DNA from: Alphaproteobacteria bacterium
GTDB lineage: Bacteria; Pseudomonadota; Alphaproteobacteria; UBA8366
Assembly: GCA_030743445.1 (NCBI GenBank)
Contig: JASLSL010000203.1
Coordinates: forward strand, 1 to 42,385
Length of the DNA stretch: 42,385 nucleotides
Reading direction: 5' to 3'
Shown: positions 3,358-26,089 of the stretch, piece after piece
Position numbering within the stretch: position 1 is the first letter of the stretch
Layout: each line of letters starts with the position of its first letter
Program-made: the position numbers and the translations under genes
Notes under the pieces: generated by a model
Databases searched by the model: none
What the model saw: the letters and a program-made list of their open reading frames with translations, nothing else
Told to the model about the DNA's origin: nothing

Positions 3358-3879
3358 ATGCAGATTTTCGGCCTCGCGGGGTGGAGCGGCAGCGGCAAAA
3401 CGACGCTGATGGTGCGCCTGGTGCCCGAATTCGTCGCCCGCGGGCTCACGGTGTCGACCGTGAAGCACGCGCATCACGATTTCGACATCGACCAGCCGGG
3501 CAAGGATTCCTACGAGCACCGCAAGGCGGGCGCCACCGAGGTGATGGTCACGGCGACCAACCGCTGGGCGCTGATGCACGAGAACCGCGGCACGCCGGAG
3601 CCCAGCGTCGAGGAATTGATCGGCCGGATGGTGCCCGTCGACCTGTTGCTCATCGAGGGGTTCAAGGACCACGAGCACGACAAGCTGGAGGTCCACCGGC
3701 CGGCGCTCGACAAGCCGCTCCTGGCGCGCGAGGACGGCCGCGTCGTCGCGGTGGCGAGCGACGCACCGATTGCGGACCTCGATTTGCCGGTCCTCGACCT
3801 TGACGACGTCGGCGCGATCGCCGATTTCATCGTGGAGCACTGCGGTTTGAGCGAGCAGAGGCGTCATGGCGCAGCTTAG
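3358..3879 (+). CDS. mobB: molybdopterin-guanine dinucleotide biosynthesis protein B
   Basis: 173 aa. P-loop GLAGWSGSGKTTLM followed by TVKHAHHDFDID and IEGFK blocks typical of MobB. Overlaps moeA by 14 nt. Confidence 0.85.
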   Translation: MQIFGLAGWSGSGKTTLMVRLVPEFVARGLTVSTVKHAHHDFDIDQPGKDSYEHRKAGATEVMVTATNRWALMHENRGTPEPSVEELIGRMVPVDLLLIEGFKDHEHDKLEVHRPALDKPLLAREDGRVVAVASDAPIADLDLPVLDLDDVGAIADFIVEHCGLSEQRRHGAA

Positions 3880-5134
3880 CGACGACTGTTTCGACGAAGG
3901 CGGGCGGCTGATCACCACCGCCGAGGCGCTCGGCATCCTGGCCGACCGGATCACCCCGGTCGCCGAGACCGAGTCCGCCGGGTTGCGCGACGCCGTCGGA
4001 CGCATTCTCGCCGAGGACATCACCGCCCCCTTCCATGTCCCGCCCTACGACAACTCGGCGGTCGATGGCTACGCGGTCTATTTCGACGATCTCCATGGCG
4101 AGATGGTGACCGAGCTGCCGGTCGGCGGACGCGCCGCGGCCGGCCATCCGCTCGGCCGCAAGGTCGAGCGCGGCGAAGCGATTCGCATCTTCACCGGTGC
4201 GCCGATGCCCGATGGTCCCGACACGGTGATGATGCAGGAGGACTGCCGCGAGGCCGGCGGCATCGTCGCGATCCCGCCCGGCATCCAGCGCGGCGCAAAC
4301 CGGCGCTCGGCCGGCGAGGACGTGACGCAAGGCAGCACCGTGCTGCACAAGGGCATGCGGCTGCGCCCCCAGGACATAGGCTTGGCGGCGTCGGTCGGAC
4401 GTACCGAGCTCGACCTCTACACGCCGCTCAATGTCACGTTGTTCTCGACCGGCGACGAGATACGCGAACCGGGGACCGAGCTGCCGGAAGGCTGCATTTT
4501 CGACTCCAACCGGTTTTCGACCATAGCGGCGCTCGGCCAGCTCGGCTGCCGTGTCACCGATCTCGGTATTCTGCCGGACGACCAGGAGGCGATCGGCAAG
4601 GCGCTCGATGCGGGCGCGGCCGAACACGATCTGGTCGTCACCTCCGGCGGCATGTCGGTCGGCGAGGAGGATCACGTGCGCGACGCGGTCGAGGCGCGCG
4701 GCTCGATCCACTTCTGGCGCCTCGCGATCAAGCCGGGACGGCCGGTGGCATTGGGCCAGATCGGCGTCGACGGCCGCACCGTTCCCTTCGTCGGCCTGCC
4801 CGGCAATCCAGTGGCGGCGATCGTGACCTTCCTGCTGGTCGCCCGGCCGCTGATCCTGCGGCTCGGCGGTGCGAGTCGGCTCGTCCCCCTGGTCTACCGG
4901 GTGCGCGCCGACTTCGCCCACAAGAAGAAGAAGGACCGCCGCGAGTTCATCCGCGCGCGGCTGACCACAGGGGCGGACGGCATCCCCCTGGCGCAGAAGT
5001 ACGGCGGCAGCGGCGCCGGCGTCCTGTCGTCGCTGGTTGGCGCCGACGGCCTGGTCGAGCTGCCGGAGGACATGACCAAGCTCGAATCGGGCGCTATGGT
5101 GGATTTCCTGCCGTTCAGCGAGGTCCTGGCATGA
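3866..5134 (+). CDS. moeA: molybdopterin molybdenumtransferase MoeA
   Basis: 422 aa. MoeA blocks (SAVDGYAV, FSTGDEIREPG, VVTSGGMSVGEEDHV, GLPGNPVAA). ATGA overlap with the moaD start. Confidence 0.9.
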   Translation: MAQLSDDCFDEGGRLITTAEALGILADRITPVAETESAGLRDAVGRILAEDITAPFHVPPYDNSAVDGYAVYFDDLHGEMVTELPVGGRAAAGHPLGRKVERGEAIRIFTGAPMPDGPDTVMMQEDCREAGGIVAIPPGIQRGANRRSAGEDVTQGSTVLHKGMRLRPQDIGLAASVGRTELDLYTPLNVTLFSTGDEIREPGTELPEGCIFDSNRFSTIAALGQLGCRVTDLGILPDDQEAIGKALDAGAAEHDLVVTSGGMSVGEEDHVRDAVEARGSIHFWRLAIKPGRPVALGQIGVDGRTVPFVGLPGNPVAAIVTFLLVARPLILRLGGASRLVPLVYRVRADFAHKKKKDRREFIRARLTTGADGIPLAQKYGGSGAGVLSSLVGADGLVELPEDMTKLESGAMVDFLPFSEVLA

Positions 5135-5382
5135 AGATTCTCTATTTCGCCTGGCTCCGCCAGCAGACCGGAATCGACACAGAAGAGGTCGAGGCGCCGG
5201 GTGAGGTCACCGACGTCGCCGGGCTCCTGGACTGGCTCAAGACGCGCGGTCCGGGCCATGCGGCAGCGCTCGCCGACCTTTCGGCGGTCCGGGTCGCGGT
5301 CAACCAGGAATTCGCGGAGCTCGACGCGGAGGTGGCGCCCGGCGACGAGGTCGCGATTTTCCCGCCGATGACGGGAGGCTGA
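5131..5382 (+). CDS. moaD: molybdopterin synthase sulfur-carrier subunit MoaD
   Basis: 83 aa with a ThiS/MoaD-like fold signature and a C-terminal Gly-Gly (..FPPMTGG*). Lies immediately upstream of moaE. Confidence 0.85.
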   Translation: MKILYFAWLRQQTGIDTEEVEAPGEVTDVAGLLDWLKTRGPGHAAALADLSAVRVAVNQEFAELDAEVAPGDEVAIFPPMTGG

Positions 5383-5383
5383 G

Positions 5384-5866
5384 ATGGCGGTCCGGGTGCA
5401 GCGCGAGGACTTCGACCCGGGCAACGAGCTCGAACGGCTGAGCGCGGGCAATCACGACATCGGCGGCGTGGCGAGCTTCGTCGGCCTGGTGCGCGACGTG
5501 GCCGGCGGCGAGGAGGTCAGCGCCATGACCCTCGAGCACTACCCGGGCATGACCGAGAAGTTGCTGGCCGAGATCGAGGCCGAAGCGAACGAACGCTGGC
5601 CGCTCGAGGCGAGCCTGATCGTGCACCGCTACGGCCGGCTCGCGCCCGGCGACCGCATCGTCCTGGTGGCGACCGCGAGCGCCCACCGGCACGCGGCGCT
5701 CGAGTCCTGCCAGTTCCTGATCGACTGGCTGAAAACCAAGGCGCCGTTCTGGAAGCTTGAGGAATCGGGCTCGAGTGGTGAAAAATGGGTCGCGGCGCGG
5801 GCCACGGACGACCGGGCGGCGGCGCGCTGGAAGCAATCGAGCGACAAGGACGAAGCCGCGGAATAG
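5384..5866 (+). CDS. moaE: molybdopterin synthase catalytic subunit MoaE
   Basis: 160 aa. MoaE blocks (GGVASFVGLVRD, MTLEHYPGM, SAHRHAALESCQFLIDWLKTKAPFWK). Confidence 0.9.
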   Translation: MAVRVQREDFDPGNELERLSAGNHDIGGVASFVGLVRDVAGGEEVSAMTLEHYPGMTEKLLAEIEAEANERWPLEASLIVHRYGRLAPGDRIVLVATASAHRHAALESCQFLIDWLKTKAPFWKLEESGSSGEKWVAARATDDRAAARWKQSSDKDEAAE

Positions 5867-6054: not shown

Positions 6055-7226
6055 TGCCCCTTTCCGGCATCTTCAGTTACGCCCCGATCGACCGCGTCGT
6101 CTACGGCATGCCGTTCGCCGAGGCCGCCCGCATCGAGGCCGAGCGGTTGGCCGCATCCCGGGTTTTCGTCCTGGCGAGCGGCACCCTGGCACGCGAGACC
6201 AACCGCATGGCCGAGCTCGAGGCCGTGCTCGGCGGCCGCTACGCCGGCCTCTATGCCGAGTTTCGCCCCCACGTGCAGCGCGACGACGTGATCGCCGCGA
6301 CAGCGGCGGCACGCGACGCGAAGGCCGACCTGATCCTCACCCTTGGCGGTGGCACCCCGACCGACGGCGCCAAAATGGTGGCACTGTGCCTCGCCAACGA
6401 CGTCACCGAGATCGACCAGATCGACGGATTGCGCACCGTCAGCAACCCGGACGGCAGCAAGGTCCAGCCCGACCTGAAAACGCCCTTGGTGCGCTGCGTC
6501 TTTATCCCGACGACGCTGTCGGGCGGCGAGTTCAGCTCCGGCGCCGGCAGCACCGACCCCAGGGCCAAGGTCAAGCAGAGCTTCCGCCACCCGCTTTTGG
6601 CGCCGCACGCGGTGATCCTCGATCCCGAGATCACGTTGCCGACGCCGGAATGGCTGTGGCTCTCGACCGGCATCCGCGCGGTCGACCATGCGGTCGAGGA
6701 TATCTGCTCGATCGACGCCCAGCCCTATGTCGACGGCACCTCGACGCATGCGCTGAGGCTCCTGGGCCGCGGCCTGCCGCGCTGCAAGGAGGCCGGCGAC
6801 GACCTCGAGGCCCGGCTCGACTGTCAGATCGGAGCCTGGCTTTCGATGGCCGGCGTCGCGGCCGGGGTCAGCAAGGGGGCGAGCCACGCGATCGGCCACA
6901 TGCTGGGCGGTACGGCCGACGTGCCGCACGGCTACACCTCCTGTGTCATGCTGCCGAACGTGCTGCGCTGGAACCGCGAGATCAACGGCGACCAGCAGGC
7001 CTTAGTCAGCGAGGCGCTCGGCCGGCCGGGCGAGGACGCCGCCGACGTGGTCGCGGAACTGATCGCCGGCCTCGGTCTGCCGGGGCGCTTGCGCGACGTC
7101 GGCGTGACCAAGGATCAGTTCCAGGAGATCGCCGACGCCTCGATGCACGACCGCTGGATTCCGACCAACCCGCGCCCGATCGACGAGCCGGCGCAGGTAA
7201 TCGAAATCCTGGAGATGGCCTGGTAG
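6054..7226 (+). CDS. iron-containing alcohol dehydrogenase family protein (maleylacetate reductase-like)
   Basis: 390 aa with a GTG start overlapping the preceding TAG by 1 nt. Fe-ADH motifs are present: GGGTPTDGAKMVA and the His cluster SHAIGHMLGG...PHGYTSC. Confidence 0.75.
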   Translation: MPLSGIFSYAPIDRVVYGMPFAEAARIEAERLAASRVFVLASGTLARETNRMAELEAVLGGRYAGLYAEFRPHVQRDDVIAATAAARDAKADLILTLGGGTPTDGAKMVALCLANDVTEIDQIDGLRTVSNPDGSKVQPDLKTPLVRCVFIPTTLSGGEFSSGAGSTDPRAKVKQSFRHPLLAPHAVILDPEITLPTPEWLWLSTGIRAVDHAVEDICSIDAQPYVDGTSTHALRLLGRGLPRCKEAGDDLEARLDCQIGAWLSMAGVAAGVSKGASHAIGHMLGGTADVPHGYTSCVMLPNVLRWNREINGDQQALVSEALGRPGEDAADVVAELIAGLGLPGRLRDVGVTKDQFQEIADASMHDRWIPTNPRPIDEPAQVIEILEMAW

Positions 7227-7230
7227 CACC

Positions 7231-10200
7231 ATGAACCGCCGCGACAGGCGCCGCGCCGCCCGCAAGGCGGCAAAGCAGGGCAAGGCCCCCGCCGCCAAAC
7301 CGGCCACGCCGAAGGCGGACGCGATGCTCGCCGAGGCGGTGGCGCACCATTCAGCGGGCCGTCTCGCGGACGCGGTGGCGATCTACGACCAGCTGCTCGG
7401 CGTCGACCCGGACCAGCCGGATGCGCTGCACCTCAAGGGCGTCGCGGTATTCCAGGCGGGCGAGGCGGAGGACGGCCTCGGTCTGATCGCCCGCGCGATC
7501 GAGCTTCGGCCGGACGTCGCAGACTACCACGCCAATCTCGGCAACATGTTGTGGACCCAGGGCCGGGCAGCGGAGGCGGAGGGACCGCTGGAGCGCGCGG
7601 TCGAGCTCAATCCGGATCATGCGGAGGCGCACAACAATCTCGGCAACACGCTGGAGGCGCTGGGTCGGGACGACGCGGCGTTGGAGCGCTTTGCCCGCGC
7701 AGTCGAGCTCAAGTCCGACTACGGGGACGCCCACGGTAACTACGGTATCTCGCTGCATCGCGCCGGACGGCTGAACGAGGCCGAGGCGATGCTGCGGCGG
7801 GCGCTCGAGCTCGATCCCGCCTCGGCGCAAGCGCACAACAACCTCGGCAATGCGCTGCGCGACCTCGCCCGCTTCGAGGAGGCCGAATCCCTGTTGCGCC
7901 GCGCCGTCGAGCTGAAGCCCGACTATGCCAACGCGCACTATAATCTCGGCATCGCGCTGTTCGACCAGCGCCGCCTGGAGGACGCCGAGGCGGCGCTGCG
8001 GCGCGCCTTGGCGCTCGATCCCGACAGCGTCGGGGCGCACAACAATCTCGCCGTGGTGCTCTCGGAACTGGGCCGGTACGAGGAGGCGGAGGACTCCGTG
8101 CGACGCGCCATCGACCTCGACCCGGAGCACGGCGAGGCGCACAACAACCTCGGCGTCGTGCTGCGCGGCCTCGGCCATTTCGAGGCGGCGGAGGACGCCT
8201 ACCGCCGGGCGCTGGCGCTCGATCCCGGCAACGCCGACGCGCACAGCAATCTGATCTTCGTGCTCGACTTCGGCGCGGACTACGACTTGGCGGAAAAACA
8301 GGCCGAGCGCCGACACTGGGCCGAGCAGCACGAAGCCCCGCTGGCAACCGAGATCCAGCCCCATTCGAACGATCGGAATCCGGACCGGCGGTTGCGCATC
8401 GGATACGTCTCGGCCGACTTCCGCCACCATTCCGCCGCCGCCTCATTCGGGCCGGTCCTGTTCAACCACGATCCGGAAAACTTCGAGGTTTTCTGTTACT
8501 CGTGCTCGGTGCGGGAGGACCATATGACGGACCGAATTCGGGATGCGGCGGCCGAATGGCGCGCCTGTTGGAGCGTCCCCGACGCCGCCGTGGCCGAACA
8601 GATTCGCGCCGACCGCATCGACGTGCTGGTCGATCTCTCGGGCCATTCGGCCGGCAACCGGCTGCTGGTCTTCGCGCGCAAACCCGCACCGGTGCAGGTC
8701 ACCGCCTGGGGGCACGCCACCGGCACCGGCCTCGAGACCATGGATCATTTCATGGCCGACCCGGTCTTCGTACCGCCCGAGGAGGAGTCGCTCTACGCCG
8801 AGAAGATCCATCACCTGCCCTCCGGGCTCGCCTACATGCCGCCCGAGGAATGCCCGGCGGTCGGCCCGCTGCCCGCGGAAGCCAACGGGTTCATTACCTT
8901 CGGCAGCTTCAACCGGCTCGACAAGGTTTCCGACGAGACGTTGGGGCTGTGGTCGGAAATTCTCGCGGCGGTGCCGAACTCGCGCCTGATGATCAAGGCG
9001 CAGTCGCTCGACAACGAGGCGATCCGCGGGCAATTCGGCGAACGGCTATTCGAGGCAGGCTTCGAGGAGAGCCGCGTCGACCTGATGGGCGGCAGCTCGC
9101 AGGTCCAACACTTGGACGCCCACAACCGGGTCGATATCGCGCTCGATCCGTTTCCCCACGGTGGCGGCATCACCACGATGGAGTCGCTGTGGATGGGAAC
9201 GCCGGTGGTGACCCTGCGCGGGCCGACCATCGCCGGACGTACTACCGCCTCGGCGCTGATCGTGCACGGTCTCGACCGCTTCATCGCCGAGACGACCGAC
9301 TCCTACCGCCATATCGCGGCGGAAGCGGCGGGCGACATCGACGAGTTGGCGCGCCTCAAGGCGTCGCTGCGCCAGACGGTCGCCACTTCGCCCGCCGGCG
9401 ATGCGGCGCAATACACCGCTGCGGTGGAAGCCGCCTACCGCGAGATGTGGCGCGAGTGGTGCGCCGCGAGGCCGGCGCCCGCCGTGAAACCCACGAAGCG
9501 CCGCCCGAAGAAGAAAAAGCGCAAGCGCGCCAAAAAACCAGTCGACCAGGCGCTGTTCGACACCGCGCGCGCGCATCACCATGCGGGCCGTCTCGCCGAG
9601 GCCGAGTTGATCTACGGCAACATCCTGGCCGACGATCCCGACAATGCCGACGCGATGCAGCTCAAGGGCGTACTCGCGCTGCAAGGCGGCAAGGCCGACG
9701 AGGCTCTCGCGCTGATCGAGTGCGCGATCGAACTCGAGCCCGGCGCCGCGATCTTTCACGGCAACCTCGGGTTCGCGCTGATCCATCTCGGCCGCAATGA
9801 GGACGCCGAGGCGGCGTTGCGCCGGGCGATCGACCTCGATCCGAAATACGCGCGCGCCCACAGCAATCTCAGCACGCTGCTGTGCGACAGCGCCCGCTTC
9901 GAGGAAGCCGAAGCTTCGATCCGCCGCGCCATCGAGCTCGAACCGGATCAGGCCGAGGCCTACAACAACCTCGGCGTCATCCTGCGCAACCGGGGCGAGT
10001 TCGACGCAGCACTCGAGGCGTTTCGCCAGGCGATGACGATCAACCCGGCCAACGCGCGGGCGCACAGCAACCTGATCTTCGTGATGGATTTCATCCCGGA
10101 CCGTGATTTAGCCGAACTGCAGGATGAGCGCCGGGACTGGAACCGGCGTTACGCCGCACCGCTGGCGCCCACCACCGAATTCCACGACAACGACCCGGAC

Positions 10201-17446: not shown

Positions 17447-19213
17447 TTACGGACCCGCCGCCGCCCGCCGGATCATCGAAATCGTCTTGGGTTGCACCTC
17501 TATGCGCCGCTGGTAGTCGCGATACCAGTCCGCGAAGTCTTTCGGTGGCAACGGCCGGCTGTAGAAATAGCCCTGCGCTTCCTCGCAACCCTGTCGGCGC
17601 AGTATTTCGAGCTGGGATTCGGTCTCGACCCCCTCGGCGACGACGCCCAGCCGCAAATGCTTGGCAAGGGTGACGATCGTCGTTGCGATCGCCGCGTCGT
17701 CAGGATCGTCGACGATGTCGCGCACGAAGGATCGGTCGATCTTGAGGCAATCCATCGGGAATCGCTTGAGGTAGGCGAGCGAGGAGTGACCGGTGCCGAA
17801 ATCGTCGATCGCGAGGCGCACGCCGAGCCCGTGCAGCCGATGCAACATCTCGGTCGTGAGATCGAGATTGTCCATGATCATGCTTTCGGTGATCTCGAGC
17901 TCGAGGTCGGTCGGTTCGATATTCCAGTCCCCCAACGCCTGGACCACCACGTCCATCAACCCGGGTGACTTGAACTGGACCGCCGACAGATTGACCGCGA
18001 CGGGGATCGGCGGCAGTCCCTCGTCGCGCCAGGCGGCGTGCTGGGCGCAGGCGGCGCGCAACACCCAATCGCCGATCGGCACGATCAGGCCAGTCACCTC
18101 GGCGACCGGGATGAACTCGTCGGGTGGGATCATGCCTTGCTCGGGATGCGGCCAACGCAACAGCGTCTCGACTCCGACGACCCGCCCGTCGAGCAGATTG
18201 ACCTTGGGCTGGAAGTGGAGCGAGAAGCCGCCCTCCTCGAGGGTCTGGCGCAGGTCGGCCTCCATTTCCTTGCGCTTCTGCGCCCGTGCGTTGAGCTCCG
18301 CGTTGTAGAACTGGAATTTGCCGCGGCCGTTGTTCTTGGCGTGGTAGAGCGCCATGTCGGCGTTCTTCAGCAATTGGTCGGGATCGGCGCTGTCCTGCGG
18401 GAACATGGTGATGCCGATGCTGGTGCTGGTGAACACGTCCCAATCGTCGATGTTCACCGGATCGACCATCTCCTCGATGATCTTGCGCGCCAACACGGAA
18501 GCGCCGCCGGTATCGTTCAGATTGGTCGCGATAACGGCGAATTCGTCGCCGCCAAGGCGGGCGACGAAATCCGACTCGCGGACCCCCTCGGCGAGCCGGA
18601 CGGAAACCTCTTTCAGCAACAAGTCGCCGGCCGGATGGCCGAGCGAATCGTTGATGTCCTTGAAGTTGTCCAAATCGAGCAGCAGGAGGGCGCCGACCTT
18701 GCCGTTGCGCTTGGTCTGCGAAATGCAGTCGACGAGGTGGGAGCGGAACAGCGTGCGGTTGGCGAGACCGGTGAGCTCGTCGTAGCGCGCCATGTTGGCA
18801 AGGCGCGTTTCCACCTTCTTCTGTTCGATCGAATACCGGATCGCGCGATCCAGCAGCGGCGCCGAAATCTGGCCCTTGACCAGATAGTCGGTGGCGCCCG
18901 CCTCCATCGCCTCGAGGTCGATCTCGCGATCGTCCTGGCCGGTAAGCAGGATAAAGGGTATCGACGAACCTTGCTCGACCGCGTCGCGGATGATGTCGAG
19001 CCCGCTGCGCTGGCCGAGCCGGTAGTCGATCAGGCATACATCGTGTTTACGGCTGGAGATCGCCTCGAGACCAGCCTGCCAGTTGTTCGCCCATTCGAAC
19101 CGGAGCTGGTTGCCGAACACCTCGCTCAGCAGGTCGTGGGCGAGGAGGTAATCGTCCTCGTCGTCCTCGATCAAAAGAATGTTCGGTGATTCACCCAACG
19201 ATCCTTTCCTCAC
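17447..19213 (-). CDS. response regulator with REC-GGDEF-EAL domains (c-di-GMP turnover)
   Basis: 588 aa. REC (ILLIEDDEDD...DVCLIDYRL). GGDEF domain with an intact GGDEF and an RxxD I-site 5 aa upstream (RESDFVARLGGDEF). EAL domain with E-T-L in place of EAL (GVETLLRW) plus DDFGTGHSSLAYL, KIDRSF and EGVET. The GTG start overlaps the upstream RR stop (GTGA). Confidence 0.9.
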   Translation of the reverse strand: MRKGSLGESPNILLIEDDEDDYLLAHDLLSEVFGNQLRFEWANNWQAGLEAISSRKHDVCLIDYRLGQRSGLDIIRDAVEQGSSIPFILLTGQDDREIDLEAMEAGATDYLVKGQISAPLLDRAIRYSIEQKKVETRLANMARYDELTGLANRTLFRSHLVDCISQTKRNGKVGALLLLDLDNFKDINDSLGHPAGDLLLKEVSVRLAEGVRESDFVARLGGDEFAVIATNLNDTGGASVLARKIIEEMVDPVNIDDWDVFTSTSIGITMFPQDSADPDQLLKNADMALYHAKNNGRGKFQFYNAELNARAQKRKEMEADLRQTLEEGGFSLHFQPKVNLLDGRVVGVETLLRWPHPEQGMIPPDEFIPVAEVTGLIVPIGDWVLRAACAQHAAWRDEGLPPIPVAVNLSAVQFKSPGLMDVVVQALGDWNIEPTDLELEITESMIMDNLDLTTEMLHRLHGLGVRLAIDDFGTGHSSLAYLKRFPMDCLKIDRSFVRDIVDDPDDAAIATTIVTLAKHLRLGVVAEGVETESQLEILRRQGCEEAQGYFYSRPLPPKDFADWYRDYQRRIEVQPKTISMIRRAAAGP

Positions 19214-19665
19214 GCGGCCTGTGGCGGCAATTGAACGATCTGCGTCCAGTAGTCGGTCACCGTGCGCATCACCTTAACCAGCTTCTCGAACGTGACCGGT
19301 TTGACGATGAAGGAATTCACGCCGAGATCGTAGGTCCGGTAGATGTCCTCTTCCGCCTTGGACGTCGTCAGCACCACCACGGGAATGCGTTTCAAGCTGT
19401 CGCTCGCCTTGATTTCCTTCAACGCTTCGCGGCCGTCCTTCTTCGGCATGTTGAGGTCGAGCAGGATCAACCCCGGCAGCGACTTGCCGTTCAGACTTTC
19501 ATACCCGTTGGCTCGGTTCAGATAGTCCATCAAGTCCTCGCCATCGACGACGAAGTCGATGTCGTTGGCGAGCCGGCTGTCCTCCAACGCGTCGCGGATG
19601 AGCAACCGGTCGTCGGGGTCGTCGTCGGCGATCAAAATAGTGATGGCAGTTGCATTGTCAGACAT
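19210..19665 (-). CDS. single-domain CheY-like response regulator
   Basis: ATG at 19665 gives the 151-aa product MSDNATAITILIADDDPDD...LILLDLNMPKKDG...VVVLTTS...FIVKP. The start overlaps the kinase stop by 8 nt (ATGTCTGA). The track ORF from 19761 is run-on inside the kinase 3' end. Confidence 0.85.
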   Translation of the reverse strand: MSDNATAITILIADDDPDDRLLIRDALEDSRLANDIDFVVDGEDLMDYLNRANGYESLNGKSLPGLILLDLNMPKKDGREALKEIKASDSLKRIPVVVLTTSKAEEDIYRTYDLGVNSFIVKPVTFEKLVKVMRTVTDYWTQIVQLPPQAA

Positions 19666-22390
19666 TTCGCTTTGCCTCGCTGTTGGGAAGCCGCGTGGGA
19701 AGGGTGACGATGAAAATCGCGCCTTCGCCCCCGCGTCCGATTGCGCTGATCGTGCCGCCATGGCGCTCGGCGATCTTGCGGCATAGCGCCAAACCGACGC
19801 CGGTGCCTTCGTATTGGCCGCGGCCGTGAAGGCGCTGGAAGATGCCGAATATCCGCTCCGAGTGCTTGGCGTCGAAACCGATCCCGTTGTCCTTGACGAC
19901 GATCTTGCACATCTCCTGGTCGGAACCGTTCTTGACCAATCCCGCGTCGACCTCGACGACGGGCGTCACGTCGTCGCGGCGGTATTTGAGGGCGTTACCG
20001 ATCATGTTCTGCAACAGTTGACGCATCTGCAGCGGGTCGGCCTCGATCGACGGCAGGTCGGCGACCTTGATGTCGGCTTTGGTTTCCCTGATCTGCAGTT
20101 CCAGATCCTCGACGACCTCGTCGACGACGCTGCCGAGATCGACAGGTTTGAAGGGCTTTCCCTTTGAATTGACCCGGGAGAATTTCAGCAGGTCGGTAAT
20201 CAAGGTCTGCATACGGTTGGTCGCCGACTGCATGCGCTCGATGTAGTCCCGTCCCTGCTCGCCCAGCGTCTCGCCGTATTTGGACTGCAAGCGATCGCCG
20301 AAGGCCTGGACCTTGCGCAGCGGCTCCTGCAAATCGTGCGAGGCGATGTAGGCGAATTGCTCGAGGTCGGCATTGGAGCGTTCGAGCTCTTTGGCATGGC
20401 GCTCGAGGACCTTTTCCGCACGCTTGAGCTCGGTGATATCGGTTTGGGTGACGAAATAGCCACCGTCGGCGGTCCGGGCTTCCTTGATGACGTACGAGGT
20501 GCCGTCGTCGAGCTCGCGAATGTACTGGCCCTTCGGATTGCGGTGCATCTCCATCCGTTCGGCGAGGATGTCTTCGACATCGCCTTCGACGTCGGCGATA
20601 CTTCCAGCCTCGATATGCACTCGCATCAGGTCTTCGAACCGCATCCCGGGTTTCAGGATATCCTTGGCCGGGTAGTGCGGGCGCCGGTACTCGTCGTTGC
20701 AAATCAACAGCCGGTCGTCGGCGTCGTAGAGACCGAACCCTTCCTGCAGGTTCTCGATCACCGTATGCAGCTTCTGTTCGGCGGTCTTTCGCTCGGTGAT
20801 ATCGCGCAATATCCCGATGAACTTTCGATGACCGCCGAAAGACATCTCTCCGATCGCCAGATCCAATGGCACCGTGGACCCGTCCTTCCGCTGGCCTTCG
20901 ACCTCGCGTCCGATGCCGATTATTTTGGCTTCACCTGTATCGAGGAATCGCCCCAGGTACCCATCATGGTGTTTGCCGATCGACTGGGGCATTAGGATTC
21001 GCACGTTTCGGCCGATGAGCTCGTCCGCCGCGCATCCGAAGATATTTTCGGCCGCTGGATTGAGAAGCTCTATGGTTCCCGTCTCGTCGATCATGATGAT
21101 GCCATCGACGACGTTTTCCATGATCGCGCGGAACCGCGTCTCGTTCTCGAAAGCAAGCTGTTCGGCCTGTTTTCGTTCGGTGATGTCGATGCGGACCGCA
21201 ATCGTGCCGCCGTCGGAGGTCTTTTGCTCGACGGCGTAGACCCAGCGCCCGTCCGCGCGCCGCGTCTCTGACGGCTCGTTGGCCGCCCGGTGGCGCTTCA
21301 TGTGACTTTGGATCCATTCCTCCTCGCGACCGATGGCGTCGGCGAGTTGCCCGCGATCCACTACGTCGCGCAATAAGTCCTCGAACCGCGCGCCGGGAAC
21401 CGTGAGGTCCGGATTCCAGCCCAGCAAGTCGTGCGTGTTGCCGTTGCAAACCACCAGGCGGTCGTCGGCATCGAATAAGGCGAAGCTGACCGGCAGGCTT
21501 TCGATTGCATCGTTCAGGCGCTGTTGCGCCGTTCGCGTCGCCTGCGCGGCCTGTCTGCGTTCGGTGAGATCTGTGTACCAGTGCTGGATCGCCGGTTCAC
21601 CATGCCAGATCACGATCCGAACGGACGTTTGCAACCAGACTTCCGTGCCATCCTTTCGCAGCGCCCGGAATTCATAGGTATCGGGCACCTCCTCGCCGGC
21701 CAAGCGGGCGTCGCGATAGCCCCTTAGCCGCGCCCGTTCCTCGGGAACGTAAAACGATTCGATCGACTCGAGCGCCATAATTTCGTCGAGACCTTCGTAT
21801 CCCAGGTTGTCCGCGAGCGCCTGATTGACGAACAGTGGTTTCCCGTCGCGATGAACGAGGACGCCGTGCAGCGCGCCTTCGATCAGCTCGCGGAAGTTCT
21901 CCTCGCTCGCGCGCAACGTCGCTTCGGTCCGCTTGCGGTCGCTTATATCGCTAACCGTACCGACGAACCGCACCGTGCCACCGGCCCGGATCTCGCCAAT
22001 CGCCAGTTCCACCGGCACGTCCGAACCGTCCTTGTGCCGGGCCACGACCTCGCTACGCGAGCCGATAACCCTTGCCTGACCGGTCTCCAGATAGCGTTTG
22101 ATATAACCGTCGTGCGCGTCCCGATGGGGATTCGGCATGAGCAAGGAGACGTTTCGCCCGATCACCTCCTCGGCTGAATATCCGAACATCCTTTCGGCCG
22201 AGGCGTTGAACGACTCGATGAGTCCGGTCTCGTCGATCGTGATCAGGCCTTCCGCCACGTTGTCGACGATCAGACGCAGGCTTTGTTCCGCCCGCTCCAA
22301 CTCGCCGGCCAGTCGGCGTTCGTCAAGCGGCGCCCCGCTCTTTGATGCCGACCAAGGCCAAAAACGTGATATGCCGGAAATCGTGCTCAT
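19658..22390 (-). CDS. cytoplasmic multi-PAS sensor histidine kinase with two FixL-like heme-PAS modules
   Basis: No TM segments seen. There are five PAS-like modules, two of which carry HDGY[IL].R[YF]L.TG...IG..REV.G.RKDGS..P..LAIGE. HisKA H-box FAYIASHDLQEPLRKV. HATPase_c blocks NALKY, DNGIGFD and GTGVGLA. Start assigned to the ATG at 22390 (MSTISG..); the Arg-rich 77 aa upstream look non-coding. The start is uncertain. Confidence 0.85.
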   Translation of the reverse strand: MSTISGISRFWPWSASKSGAPLDERRLAGELERAEQSLRLIVDNVAEGLITIDETGLIESFNASAERMFGYSAEEVIGRNVSLLMPNPHRDAHDGYIKRYLETGQARVIGSRSEVVARHKDGSDVPVELAIGEIRAGGTVRFVGTVSDISDRKRTEATLRASEENFRELIEGALHGVLVHRDGKPLFVNQALADNLGYEGLDEIMALESIESFYVPEERARLRGYRDARLAGEEVPDTYEFRALRKDGTEVWLQTSVRIVIWHGEPAIQHWYTDLTERRQAAQATRTAQQRLNDAIESLPVSFALFDADDRLVVCNGNTHDLLGWNPDLTVPGARFEDLLRDVVDRGQLADAIGREEEWIQSHMKRHRAANEPSETRRADGRWVYAVEQKTSDGGTIAVRIDITERKQAEQLAFENETRFRAIMENVVDGIIMIDETGTIELLNPAAENIFGCAADELIGRNVRILMPQSIGKHHDGYLGRFLDTGEAKIIGIGREVEGQRKDGSTVPLDLAIGEMSFGGHRKFIGILRDITERKTAEQKLHTVIENLQEGFGLYDADDRLLICNDEYRRPHYPAKDILKPGMRFEDLMRVHIEAGSIADVEGDVEDILAERMEMHRNPKGQYIRELDDGTSYVIKEARTADGGYFVTQTDITELKRAEKVLERHAKELERSNADLEQFAYIASHDLQEPLRKVQAFGDRLQSKYGETLGEQGRDYIERMQSATNRMQTLITDLLKFSRVNSKGKPFKPVDLGSVVDEVVEDLELQIRETKADIKVADLPSIEADPLQMRQLLQNMIGNALKYRRDDVTPVVEVDAGLVKNGSDQEMCKIVVKDNGIGFDAKHSERIFGIFQRLHGRGQYEGTGVGLALCRKIAERHGGTISAIGRGGEGAIFIVTLPTRLPNSEAKRNV

Positions 22391-22614
22391 AAGGCTCGGT
22401 TGCCCTGGTCCCCTCCCACGCGTTCTCCGCCGCCGTCGGCAAGAGCCGGCATGGGTAGCCATTGGAAAAACCACATCTTTTGTGCCCCTTAGGCGTGAAG
22501 ATTCGGTTAACCGCCCATCACCTTGCCGCGATGCATCGACAACGGGGTTTCGAGAGGTCAAACTGCCGGCGTCAAAAAAATGCAAATCAGAAAACGCGTA
22601 CAGGGAAGGGCAGC

Positions 22615-22962
22615 ATGGCAATCGAGCGACGCCACAAGGGACCGCGCATGAGCCAGATCGTGGTCCACGGAAACACGGTCTATTTTGCGGGCCTGGTCGG
22701 CGACGACCGCGATGCGGACATGGCGACCCAGACGCAACAGATTCTCGACAAGATCGACCGCTACTTGGCCGAAGTGGGAACCGACAAATCGAAACTGTTG
22801 GCGGCGGAAATCTGGATCAACGACATGTCCAAGTTCGACGAGATGAATGCCGTGTGGGACGCTTGGATCGACCCGGACAACCCGCCGGGACGGGCCTGCT
22901 GCGAAGCCAAGCTGGCGCATCCCGATTGGAAGGTCGAGATCATCATCCGGGCGGCGTGCTGA
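22615..22962 (+). CDS. RidA/YjgF family reactive-intermediate (enamine/imine) deaminase-like protein
   Basis: ATG at 22615 is preceded by gggaaggg. The 115-aa product (..VVHGNTVYFAGLVGDD...QTQQILDKIDRYLAEVGTDKSKLL...W..D...F..MN.VW..W) has the typical RidA-family layout. Confidence 0.75.
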   Translation: MAIERRHKGPRMSQIVVHGNTVYFAGLVGDDRDADMATQTQQILDKIDRYLAEVGTDKSKLLAAEIWINDMSKFDEMNAVWDAWIDPDNPPGRACCEAKLAHPDWKVEIIIRAAC

Positions 22963-22969
22963 CGATCGC

Positions 22970-24226
22970 CTAAGACGCCTTGCGCGGCGCCTCGGGCTTG
23001 GCGCGGTTCTTCTGACGCCGCGGGATCAGGGCCTTCTCACCCAACAACCGGATTCGCGAATCGTCGCTTTCCATGATCACCGGGTGCAGCACCCGTAGCA
23101 TCTCGCCGGCCGTCGTTTCGTTCCAGAACCATTCCTGCAGTTCGGCGTTGCCGGCGGTCTTGCCCGGTTGGGCGTTGCTCGCCTCGAAGTAATAATTCTT
23201 CAAGTCCTCGATCGCGAGCTTGAGCACGTCGCCGAGCTCGATCTCCGGCCTCGGATTGTCCGGCCGTTCGCCGTCGAGGAACGAGGTGACGAAGCCGCCG
23301 ACGGCCTCGATGCCGAGGCCTGCGAGACCGAAGGTCGTGCGCCCGCCGCGGGCCTCGCGGCCGAGATCGTACCACGGCGTCAGCTGGTGGATTTCGCGGG
23401 CCAGGGCCGCGGCGAGACTGCCGGGCTCGGCGTCGAGGCCGGGCGGCGCGCCGAGCGCCACCGGGCAGACCCAGCCCTCGCCCTCGGCCGACGGCCCGGC
23501 ATCGGCCGGTGCGTCTTCCGGGAAATCCTCCAGCACCGGCCCCGCGTCGCGTTCCAACAGGGCCAGCGCCGCCCGCATGACCTTCTTCTGGAATTCGGGA
23601 TGGCCCGGGGCGCCGATCGGCCGGCCGAGCTCGAACGGCACCCAGAGCGCCCTCGGCGGGCGAATCTTCTCGGTGTGCGGCCGCACCAGGCTGATCTGGG
23701 TCGTCGCCAGGCCTTCTTCCTCAAGGTAATGGCCGAGTGCGCTCACGGCGCACGTGCAGCGGGGTCAAACCGGCGCCAGGAGCACCGCGTCGACGCAGTC
23801 CTCCCTGAGATAGCCGGCGATCTCGCGCACCAGCGGCTCCATGTCGTCGGGCGTGGTCGAGCCCATGAACGAGTAGTGGTAGTCGGCGACCGAGCCGATC
23901 GCGCCCTCGGCCTCCAGCTCCTTCAAGCGTTCGACCGGGAACACGACGTTGAGGTCCTGCTGGAAGCCGGTGCGGTCGAAATTGACCGAGACGTGGCTCA
24001 TCACGATGTCGGCGGAATCGGTGTCCTTGTGGAACACCCGGTAGTCGGCGTCGTCGCGCACGAAGGGCCGGTCCTCGCGCCGCTGCAACCCCGCGGTCGA
24101 GATGATGGCGACGCGGCGCTCGGCCACGGGCGGCCCCGCGACCCAGGGATCGCTATCGAAGGTCGGGCACGGGACCTCGAGCAGGTACTCCCGCTCGTAG
24201 TCCGGCAGGTCGGTCATGCGGACCAT
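22970..24226 (-). CDS. GrdB/PrdB-family reductase-like protein, candidate selenoprotein (in-frame TGA at 23765-23767 read as Sec)
   Basis: Track ORFs 23765..24286(-) and 22970..23746(-) share one frame, separated only by TGA plus 6 sense codons. The joined sequence is ..VFPVERLKELEAEGAIGSVADYHYSFMGSTT...DCVDAVLLAPV-U-PRCTCAVSALGHYLEEEGLATTQISLV..RALWVPFELGRPIGAP.. From memory it parallels clostridial GrdB around its Sec (..VDAVILTST-U-GTCTRCGATM..ERAGIP..). Start placed at the ATG at 24226, with GGAG 6 nt upstream. Confidence 0.6.
23737..23753 (-). promoter_or_regulatory. SECIS-like hairpin 11 nt downstream of the in-frame UGA
   Basis: Minus-strand RNA: UGA-CCCCGCUGCAC-GUGCGC-CGUGA-GCGCAC. 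This is a perfect 6-bp GC-rich stem with a 5-nt apical loop containing GU. The spacing from the UGA is similar to that of the E. coli fdhF minimal SECIS. Confidence 0.35.
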
Positions 24227-24327
24227 GTGGGGCTCCGAGGCAAACCGTATCGCCTTTGTATAGGAACTCGGCCGAAACCGAGTCAAATCTGGGGCCGGTA
24301 AAGTTTAGACCAGCCAACGATTCCACC

Positions 24328-25140
24328 TCAATCTACACTGGCGTCGATCACATAGACCGGGTGCTCGGCGCCGGCGGCGGGATCGATATCCATCAGCCGC
24401 ACCGGAAACGGCGCCTCGCCGAAGGCCGGCGCGGTCGAATAGACCACGCCCCCGGCGCCTTCCGCCAGGGCCCCCGGATGGTGGTGGCCCGAAAGCGTGC
24501 AGCGCACGCGGCCCGAGGCCTCGATCGCCGCGGTGTAGGCGCCGTCGACCTGATAGGTGTAGTGCTTGTTCTTGGCGAACACATCCGGTGCCAGGATGTA
24601 GTGCTGCAGGTGGACCTGCGGCCCATTATGGGCCGGATCGCCCAACACCTGGTCCATCAGCCGCGCGCCCGCTGCGGTCCGGACCGGGCTCATCTCCCCG
24701 TCTACCACGTCGAAGAAGCGGACGAAACGGAGGCCGGCCGCCGCATTAACCCCGGGGCCGGGGAATACGCGTTGAAACACGTCTTCCAGGTCGTGGTTGC
24801 CGGGGATCGCCGCATAGGGCAGGCCGGTGCCTTCGAGCCAGCCGAACATCCAGCGATAATCTTCCTCGGCCGCGGCCGTGGTCGCGGCGTCGATCACGGG
24901 ATCGAGTCCCTCGACGCCGCCGTAGAGCACCGCCGGAATATCGAGCAGGTCGCCGGTCATGGCGATGGCGTCGGGCGTCCAATCGGCGAATTTAGCCTCG
25001 AGCCGGCCGAGCGCCGCGGGAACCTCGCGCGACAGCCGCTCGGCGCCCTCGGCCGAGCCCGGCAGCGCCTGGCGCATATGCAGGTCGGTCAGGTGGACGA
25101 CACGCACCACGCCGTCGGGTTTTCGCGGAACCTGGCTCAT
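24328..25140 (-). CDS. metallophosphoesterase (calcineurin-like phosphoesterase) family protein
   Basis: 270 aa with the canonical motifs VVHLTDLHM, MTGDLLD, IPGNHD and LSGHHHPG. Confidence 0.8.
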   Translation of the reverse strand: MSQVPRKPDGVVRVVHLTDLHMRQALPGSAEGAERLSREVPAALGRLEAKFADWTPDAIAMTGDLLDIPAVLYGGVEGLDPVIDAATTAAAEEDYRWMFGWLEGTGLPYAAIPGNHDLEDVFQRVFPGPGVNAAAGLRFVRFFDVVDGEMSPVRTAAGARLMDQVLGDPAHNGPQVHLQHYILAPDVFAKNKHYTYQVDGAYTAAIEASGRVRCTLSGHHHPGALAEGAGGVVYSTAPAFGEAPFPVRLMDIDPAAGAEHPVYVIDASVD

Positions 25141-25162: not shown

Positions 25163-26089
25163 TCACGCCGCGCTGGTGCTGACGAGGGCGGTGTCCTTGT
25201 TGGGCCGCAGCACCTCGGCGTCGTAATCCTCCATCAGCGCCTTGGTGACCTCGCCCGGGGTGAAGCTGTACTCGCCGATCTCGGAAATCGGCGTCACCTC
25301 GACCGCGGTGCCGGTCAGGAAGCACTCGGAAGCCTTAGCCAGCTCCTCGGGCTTGATGTGGCGCTCTATGATCTCGATCCCGCGCGCCCGGGCGAGGTCC
25401 ATCACCGTGCGCTTGGTGATGCCGTCGAGGAAGCAGTCGGGTGTGGGCGTATGCAGCTTGCCGTCGATCAACAGGAAGATGTTGGCGCCCGTCGCCTCAG
25501 AGATGAAGCCGCGGTAATCGAGCATCAGGGCGTCGGAATAGCCCTCCGCCTCGGCCGCGTGCTTGGAAAGCGTGCAGATCATGTAGAGCCCGGTCGCCTT
25601 GGTCTGACACGGGATCGTCGCCGGGTCGGGCCGCCGCCACTTGGCCCATTGCATGCGAATGCCCTGCATGCGGGCCTCGGGCGAGAAATAGGCCGGCCAC
25701 TCCCAGGCCGCGATGGCGACGTGGATCTTCGTCAGTTGGGCCGAAACCCCCATCATCTCGGCACCGCGCCAGGCGAGCGGACGGACGTAGCCTTCCGAAA
25801 TGCCCTGGTCGGCGACGACCGCGTTGCACGCATCGTCGATCTCGTCGGCGGTATAGGGAATTTCGAAGTCCATCGTGCGCGCGCTAAACAATAGGCGCTC
25901 GGTGTGGTCGCGCAGCTTGAAGATTTGCCCGTTGTAGCAGCGTTCGCCCTCGAACACCGCCGAGGCATAATGCAAGGCGTGGGAGAGAACGTGCACTTTG
26001 GCATCGGCCCACGGCAGCATTTCACCGTCAAACCAGATGTGTCCCGGGCGATTGTCGAAGGGGATCATGTCCATCGCAGTCGGCTCCAA
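25163..26089 (-). CDS. ilvE: branched-chain amino acid aminotransferase
   Basis: 308 aa with class IV aminotransferase blocks: HALHYASAVFEGERCY, YVRPLAWRG, ATGANIFLLIDGKLHTP and CFLTGTAVEVTPI. Alternative starts at 26074 or 26068. Confidence 0.9.
   Translation of the reverse strand: MEPTAMDMIPFDNRPGHIWFDGEMLPWADAKVHVLSHALHYASAVFEGERCYNGQIFKLRDHTERLLFSARTMDFEIPYTADEIDDACNAVVADQGISEGYVRPLAWRGAEMMGVSAQLTKIHVAIAAWEWPAYFSPEARMQGIRMQWAKWRRPDPATIPCQTKATGLYMICTLSKHAAEAEGYSDALMLDYRGFISEATGANIFLLIDGKLHTPTPDCFLDGITKRTVMDLARARGIEIIERHIKPEELAKASECFLTGTAVEVTPISEIGEYSFTPGEVTKALMEDYDAEVLRPNKDTALVSTSAA

Follow-up and report, generated by a model that had tools for sequence, protein, structure and literature searches.

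The minus strand of contig JASLSL010000203.1 from an alphaproteobacterium, analysed here over a stretch of 42,385 nt (the window, to which all coordinates refer), carries two adjacent open reading frames (ORFs) separated by an in-frame TGA. Our analysis indicates with high confidence that positions 22970-24226(-) constitute a single gene for a selenoprotein of 418 residues, in which UGA codon 154 is recoded to selenocysteine (Sec, U) by way of a selenocysteine insertion sequence (SECIS), and whose product is likely a stand-alone, substrate-specific reductase. The unity of the gene, the recoding of the UGA through a SECIS-type hairpin and the presence of a U-x-x-C centre in a PrdB-like fold are shown or strongly supported by the data described below.

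The two ORFs, 23765..24286(-) and 22970..23746(-), share one reading frame and are joined by the TGA at 23767..23765. The minus-strand sequence around this codon reads GCG CCG GTT TGA CCC CGC TGC ACG TGC GCC GTG AGC: six sense codons (CCC CGC TGC ACG TGC GCC) follow the TGA and are succeeded by a GTG (23746). Translation across the TGA yields ...EDCVDAVLLAPV-*-PRCTCAVSALGHYLEEEGLATTQISLVRPH..., and the translation of the N-terminal ORF contains the peptide blocks VFPVERLKELEAEGAIG and YHYSFMGSTT. The initial annotation, made from the letters of the DNA, had described this arrangement and quoted both peptides; its coordinates and codons were right and the two blocks are present. The likely start of the gene, as judged from alignment, is the ATG at 24226-24224: homologues P0011 and P0243 begin with MVRL... 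at the matching position. A GGAG Shine-Dalgarno-like motif (24233..24236(-)), read from the sequence, is located 6 nt upstream of this ATG. The complete gene (22970..24226(-)) comprises 418 codons, of which the TGA (23765..23767(-)) is codon 154, and ends with a TAG stop (22970-22972). When the window was scanned for other selenoprotein candidates with an in-frame TGA, only ordinary gene boundaries were encountered.

Homologues were collected by a DNA scan that used one genome per species and yielded 80 independent loci with 84 gene copies. TGA occupies the same column, in the same frame, in all 84 copies, a degree of conservation far beyond chance. The loci come from metagenome-assembled genomes (MAGs) labelled as Alphaproteobacteria (Rhodospirillaceae, SAR116/Puniceispirillum, Hyphomicrobiales), Desulfobacterota, Dehalococcoidia/Chloroflexota, Binatia and Gammaproteobacteria, and the closest relatives of the gene were found in Rhodospirillaceae-type Alphaproteobacteria MAGs. 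Compared with the nearest of these, L081, the window protein has 95% identity in its N-terminal and 88% in its C-terminal part.

Most of the matches in a search of 5.8 billion proteins were C-terminal fragments of ~250 amino acids (aa), and a few were full-length proteins. In four full-length forms (P0004, P0005, P0011 and P0036) the alignment places a Cys at the exact TGA column, in the motifs APV-C-LLCTR, SPV-C-PGCTR, TPV-C-PNCTR and APV-C-PACTR, respectively. The suggestion of the initial annotation that the TGA falls in a conserved Cys/Sec column is thus borne out, full-length homologues having PV-C-xx-C-T where the 84 copies have TGA. The N-terminal part, used as query, gave 3,200 matches, nearly all of exactly 153 aa, i.e. 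ending at the same codon; these fragments go under the names 'D-proline reductase (dithiol) PrdB' (JGI) and 'glycine/sarcosine/betaine reductase selenoprotein B family protein' (NCBI). Because a query with a Cys form added just three further full-length proteins, the family is overwhelmingly of the TGA type.

The family affiliation of the protein was assessed by profile searches with the fused sequence, in which C was substituted for U. Pfam GRDB (PF07355) matched residues 12-151 on profile positions 200-345 of 347 with 41.6 bits (gathering threshold 22, E = 1.2e-10); this match ends at query residue 151, three residues before the TGA. The NCBIfam model of PrdB, TIGR04483, aligned across the TGA, with residues 33-225 on model positions 26-219 of 238 (97 bits, 1.1e-27). 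All scores stayed below the NCBIfam cut-offs: 97 bits against an equivalog cut-off of 300 for TIGR04483, 55.7 bits against a subfamily cut-off of 65.45 for TIGR01918 ('various_sel_PB') and 47.3 bits against an equivalog cut-off of 602 for the GrdB model TIGR01917, of which the C-terminal half only was matched. On the basis of these scores the N-terminal 225 residues are a PrdB-like domain, yet the protein is no equivalog of a characterised selenoprotein B. The initial annotation had placed it in the GrdB/PrdB family and had proposed PF07355 and the selenoprotein B models as a check. The profile matches lead to the same conclusion as the clostridial GrdB motifs cited in that annotation. Membership in the broad family holds, with PF07355 above its gathering threshold and the PrdB and GrdB models aligned over the domain, but the protein is PrdB-sized, resembles PrdB rather than GrdB and lies below every curated NCBIfam cut-off.

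The protein consists of a PrdB-like alpha/beta domain (residues 33-225, 23552..24130(-)), which spans the Sec codon and contains the redox motif U154-P-R-C157 (23756..23767(-)), and of a helical C-terminal domain found in this family only. The C-terminal region (residues 226-418, 22973..23551(-)) is composed of a linker and an all-helical domain. Conservation of codons and residues was counted over 82 homologues. The U154 column (Cys/Sec) and C157 were conserved in 82/82, C254 in 81/82 and C20, which sits in an N-terminal xPCPxF motif, in 70/82; the initial annotation had already described the U-x-x-C motif that arises from the TGA. Cys254 (23465..23467(-)), located in the interdomain linker and followed by the similarly conserved Pro255 (79/82), is a candidate relay or resolving thiol, and both C254 and C20 may act as relay thiols. 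Invariant residues of the N-terminal domain include R38, R63, H78, S80, D84, D91, N93, R100 and Y118, and R182, R192 and R202 are invariant as well. This pattern suggests a defined binding site for a small molecule, rather than a generic thiol oxidoreductase.

As a stand-in for the window protein we used an AlphaFold2 model of the Cys homologue P0005, which is 47% identical to it (pLDDT 89, predicted template modelling score 0.85). The model shows an alpha/beta domain, in which the C/U-x-x-C motif is flanked by a beta-strand and by the N-terminus of a helix, as is classic for redox-active CxxC centres; a linker of low pLDDT follows, and then a C-terminal domain made of helices only. Pfam gave no match for residues 226-418. 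The C-terminal domain is represented by 633 clusters at 50% identity, essentially all of them post-TGA fragments or full-length Cys forms, and none of the 633 clusters showed a fusion of this domain to another one. Foldseek comparison of the P0005 model with the PDB yielded no relative (best match E = 0.028, TM-score ~0.2). A PDB sequence search had aligned residues 280-395 (~23040-23389) with the sulfur-binding domain of ScoMcrA (7cc9, 7ccj, 7ccd; E ~0.03); since Foldseek did not recover these matches, we regard them as probably due to chance.

By analogy with PrdB and GrdB, whose chemistry is summarised in PMC13188914, the protein would act as a stand-alone, substrate-specific reductase. The selenolate of U154 would attack a bound small-molecule substrate, which the many invariant residues of the N-terminal domain (Arg, His, Asp and Asn) would hold. 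C157, perhaps helped by the linker Cys254, would then resolve the adduct to a selenenyl-sulfide, and a thiol system such as thioredoxin would re-reduce the latter.

It is also conceivable that the gene encodes PrdB proper, i.e. the Sec-containing subunit of D-proline reductase, or else a subunit of the GrdB type, and that another part of the genome supplies the pyruvoyl partner (PrdA or GrdE). TIGR04483 is indeed the best profile hit (1e-27), the match covers nearly the whole PrdB model, and Sec 154 occupies a PrdB-like position: PrdB of Clostridium sticklandii and C. difficile likewise has a U-x-x-C Sec at about residue 150, encoded by a UGA with a downstream SECIS. The JGI name of the fragments points in the same direction, and marine homologues have been filed under PrdB in the literature (PMC1088965, PMC2398784). 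Against this stand the score, which is one third of the PrdB equivalog cut-off, and the ~190 extra, helical C-terminal residues, which have no counterpart in the 238-position PrdB model. No gene for PrdA, PrdC, GrdA, GrdE, GrdC, GrdD or thioredoxin was found in the 42-kb window, and no recurrent partner gene was detected within ~7 kb on either side in the 80 loci, the commonest neighbour being present in 13/80. The hosts are mainly MAGs of Alphaproteobacteria, Desulfobacterota and Chloroflexota, not Stickland-fermenting clostridia; the main host lineages are not known for this type of fermentation.

The resemblance to GrdB, GrdF and GrdH (PF07355, TIGR01917/01918) is limited in a similar way. 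Shared traits are the PF07355 score above gathering, the U-x-x-C motif and the NCBI family name, but only the C-terminal half of the GrdB profile is matched (positions ~200-416), the N-terminal half of GrdB being absent from the window protein; the scores fall short of the TIGR01918 and TIGR01917 cut-offs, and grdA, grdE, grdC and grdD are missing from the vicinity. The consensus of the family is UxxC and not the UxxCxxC of GrdB (PMC13188914), although the window protein itself has UPRCTC. We therefore consider a role as a proline or glycine reductase subunit quite unlikely. Because there is no pyruvoyl partner nearby and the PrdB and GrdB cut-offs were missed, the protein is probably a stand-alone PrdB-like reductase and no subunit of D-proline or glycine reductase.

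The segment immediately downstream of the UGA can form a SECIS-type hairpin, GUGCGC-CGUGA-GCGCAC (23737..23753(-)), which starts 11 nt after the UGA and has comparative support. It is 17 nt long and consists of a 6-bp stem (GUGCGC/GCGCAC) and a 5-nt loop (CGUGA); the distance from the UGA to the loop is 17 nt and the energy of the hairpin in fixed register is -8.8 kcal/mol. The model of the bacterial SECIS element (bSECIS) given in Figure 2A of PMC13188914 has an upper stem of 4-16 bp capped by an apical loop of 3-9 nt, a G within the first two nucleotides of the loop, as a rule with G or U after it, a distance of 16-37 nt between UGA and apical loop, and a minimum free energy (MFE) of -7.5 kcal/mol or lower. 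The window hairpin agrees with this model in all four respects. Among the 82 homologues, the loop conforms to N-G-U-N-N without exception (C-G-U-G-A in the window). The MFE of the downstream segment is -7.5 or lower in 82/82; for the hairpin alone in fixed register, the median is -7.4 and only 30/82 attain -7.5.

Codon usage in the same 82 genes points to a constraint on the RNA. Codon entropy drops only at codons +4 to +9 after the TGA. Near the TGA, Arg is encoded by CGC in 70/71 cases (0.11 bit, as compared with ~2.1 bit elsewhere in the gene), Ala by GCC in 74/81 (0.51 versus ~1.5 bit) and Gly by GGC in 61/68 (0.54 versus ~1.9 bit). For the Val codon between the two stem arms, usage is variable (1.46 bit) and the wobble position, which falls into the loop, is free. 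Such a pattern is typical of coding sequence in which a stem-loop is embedded, here with its loop at the Val wobble position. To test the helix, pairs were counted explicitly between columns 21-26 and 32-37 of alignment A2. Pairing was observed in 86% of the cells, compared with at most 60% when the partner columns were slid; compensatory double changes occurred in four of the six helix pairs, and the covariation score was reached by none of 500 shuffles. In the three Cys-form sequences available for this comparison, the hairpin is kept in one and degraded in two.

Like the SECIS of the Escherichia coli fdhF type and the bSECIS consensus, the hairpin is a coding-region stem-loop just after the UGA, has a small loop with G followed by U, and is spaced within the range of 16-37 nt. 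Its sequence is unrelated to that of the fdhF element, and no Rfam family covers it, searches at gathering thresholds and in permissive mode both giving no match. The data strongly support a mechanism in which UGA 154 is recoded to Sec by the bacterial SelB/tRNA-Sec system and the stem-loop located in the coding sequence 11 nt downstream directs this recoding.

Genes of the Sec machinery were found next to some of the homologues: selA, selB and/or selD lie within 7.5 kb of the homologue in 12/80 loci, and tRNA-Sec is located beside it in 10 of those 12. In L051, L068 and L077, selD is directly upstream of the homologue. The encoded proteins scored above the NCBIfam cut-offs (SelB, 286 bits versus 242; SelD, 519 versus 299; SelA, 584 versus 268). 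These observations bear on the possibility that read-through of the UGA is independent of selenium, for example through near-cognate insertion of Trp or Cys or through some unknown recoding route, so that a full-length protein but no selenoprotein is made in this organism. Such a reading could draw on the fact that the window holds none of the sel genes of the source genome, and that in 68/80 loci no sel genes were found in the flanks (up to 10 kb). However, sel genes need not adjoin their client genes, and linkage of the gene to selABCD was encountered repeatedly in relatives. Moreover, the conserved stem-loop has the spacing and the loop G-U typical of SelB-dependent SECIS elements, and the recoded position is the redox Cys of U-x-x-C, as in known selenoproteins. 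We regard selenium-free read-through as very unlikely, and Sec insertion at UGA 154 as the preferred reading; the proposal of a candidate selenoprotein is supported by the Cys/TGA column, by the conserved residues that follow the TGA and by the SECIS-type hairpin.

The latter residues also speak to the question of whether the TGA is a real stop between two genuine adjacent genes, the second of which would start at GTG 23746. Gene callers everywhere emit a 153-aa PF07355 fragment and a ~250-aa hypothetical protein, as the initial annotation had anticipated (in L081 the products are called as 153 and 258 aa), and a GTG is found 7 codons past the TGA in 47/82 genes. The other 35/82 have no start codon at +7, the first possible start varies between +2 and +50 codons across the 82 genes, and a Shine-Dalgarno-like motif precedes the GTG in 4/82 only. 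Of the residues encoded in the six-codon spacer, P155 and C157, the latter being the Cys of the U-x-x-C motif, are conserved in 82/82 homologues, A160 in 81/82 and T158 in 80/82. Furthermore, the PrdB profile runs through the TGA, full-length Cys forms exist, and the frame is the same in all 84 copies. With neither a conserved start nor a conserved ribosome-binding motif after the TGA, two separate genes are highly improbable. A pseudogene or a sequencing or assembly error, i.e. a premature stop in a Cys-type gene, might be envisaged since the TGA is one base from TGC/TGT and Cys forms exist, but is effectively refuted by the comparative data: the identical TGA recurs in 84/84 copies from independent assemblies and phyla, L081 (88-95% identical) has the same TGA and hairpin, and the downstream half of the gene has a GC content at third codon positions (GC3) of 0.88 and a ratio of nonsynonymous to synonymous substitution rates (dN/dS) against L081 of 0.26, which, together with the value of 0.15 before the TGA, indicates purifying selection on both halves and identifies them as functional coding sequence.

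Several observations weigh against the interpretation of 22970-24226(-) as a gene for a Sec-dependent, stand-alone reductase. There is no selA, selB, selD or tRNA-Sec in the 42-kb window, and the Sec capacity of the host is inferred from relatives. The folding energy of the hairpin is not exceptional for GC-rich sequence (z-score 0.24, which is uninformative at 66% GC), and RNAalifold alone recovers only the inner 3 bp of the 6-bp helix; the case for the hairpin rests therefore on sequence comparison and not on thermodynamics. The proposed catalytic steps are all modelled on the chemistry of PrdB and GrdB, and neither the PDB sequence search nor Foldseek provided a solved structure for comparison. 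Finally, gene neighbourhoods are not conserved, no neighbour being shared by more than 13/80 loci.

Some of the homologous loci had peculiarities of their own. L007, L013, L014 and L016 contain tandem paralogues ~1.2 kb apart (in L007 at 10460 and 11689), and both copies have the TGA and the hairpin. In the gene for P0004 (L085, 6030-7139) TGC replaces TGA, yet its SECIS-like hairpin and the nucleotides after it match the L040 Sec form exactly, which suggests a very recent switch from Sec to Cys, or else a base-call difference. The JGI contig Ga0499970_0000407 (L082, 36.5 kb) is recorded with the Cys form P0005 as well as with the Sec-type C-terminal fragment P0252, and on this record Cys and Sec paralogues coexist in one genome. 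Two contigs were binned oddly, L009 (2.6 kb) in an archaeal Nitrosopumilus sp. MAG and L040 in an Enterobacteriaceae MAG; these assignments may reflect mis-binning rather than the true distribution of the family.

The window, with 66% GC, is ordinary chromosomal DNA from a GC-rich bacterium, and its genes include uvrC, pgsA, mobB, moeA, moaE, a SulP transporter, two-component systems, proC, lgt and prs. Upstream of the selenoprotein gene, on the same strand, Pfam matches identified a metallophosphoesterase (24328-25140(-)) and a class IV aminotransferase (25163-26089(-)), preceded by a weak promoter-like site at 26187-26158. These two genes may be co-transcribed with the selenoprotein gene; their synteny with it is limited to L081 and L001-L003. 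The most frequent neighbours in the 80 loci were a CaiB-type CoA-transferase (13), an ABC ATPase (13) and SelB (10), and a D-2-hydroxyacid dehydrogenase is encoded immediately downstream of the homologue in 9/80. A PAS-rich histidine kinase and a response regulator (19210-22621(-)) are situated between the selenoprotein gene and a gene for a response regulator with GGDEF and EAL domains. In L001-L003 a GGDEF-EAL homologue follows the selenoprotein gene at ~1.3 kb, and the kinase/regulator segment looks like a lineage-specific insertion or rearrangement. The molybdenum-cofactor cluster mobB, moeA, moaE (3358-5866(+)) is consistent with the use of molybdopterin enzymes by this organism; one such enzyme is formate dehydrogenase, the most common selenoprotein of bacteria, but no fdh gene was found in the window. 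ARAGORN predicted a 91-nt 'tRNA-Ala(tgc)' (7211-7301(-)) at the boundary between the Fe-alcohol-dehydrogenase and TPR-GT41 genes, which is probably a false positive, with no tRNA match in Rfam.

That genes of the selenoprotein B family contain a Sec codon is already known, and the family has been reported as "PrdB" since 2005. 'Proline reductase PrdB' (UxxC, pfam07355) was the third most abundant selenoprotein family of the Sargasso Sea, with 42 Sec and 1 Cys forms (Zhang, Fomenko & Gladyshev 2005, PMC1088965), and it ranked with the most abundant families of the Global Ocean Sampling data, where 235 Sec and 110 Cys forms were counted (Zhang & Gladyshev 2008, PMC2398784). 'Proline reductase' selenoproteins have also been listed for the deltaproteobacteria Anaeromyxobacter and Geobacter (PMC1794560). 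From the shared UxxC motif, the Pfam family, the marine habitat and the excess of Sec over Cys forms, we infer that the marine metagenome 'PrdB' and the clade of the window protein are the same. PMC1088965 and PMC2398784 leave the C-terminal domain, the lack of PrdA and the sel-operon linkage undiscussed, and a text search of the literature turned up no publication on a 'PrdB-like' or stand-alone form. What remains novel is modest, namely the long architecture of a stand-alone protein, the C-terminal domain private to the family, the conserved Cys of the linker and the frequent linkage to sel operons.

The annotation should be corrected so that the two calls become a single coding sequence carrying a transl_except at 23765-23767 for Sec. 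Thousands of database entries have been split wrongly in the same way, into 153-aa 'PrdB' fragments and ~250-aa 'hypothetical proteins'. The family is abundant, overwhelmingly Sec-dependent and probably mislabelled as proline reductase, which bears on how selenium demand and Stickland-type metabolism are estimated from marine and groundwater metagenomes. As for the biology of the family, we are slightly inclined to think that the long PrdB-like clade represents a stand-alone selenoenzyme with a substrate of its own, in which the U154-x-x-C157 centre would be served by C254 as relay and the private helical domain would replace the partner subunits. Because the gene is often found beside selABCD and almost never in a Cys form, this enzyme may be a main reason for the retention of the Sec machinery by many marine Alphaproteobacteria (SAR116 and Rhodospirillaceae lineages) and by other uncultured lineages.

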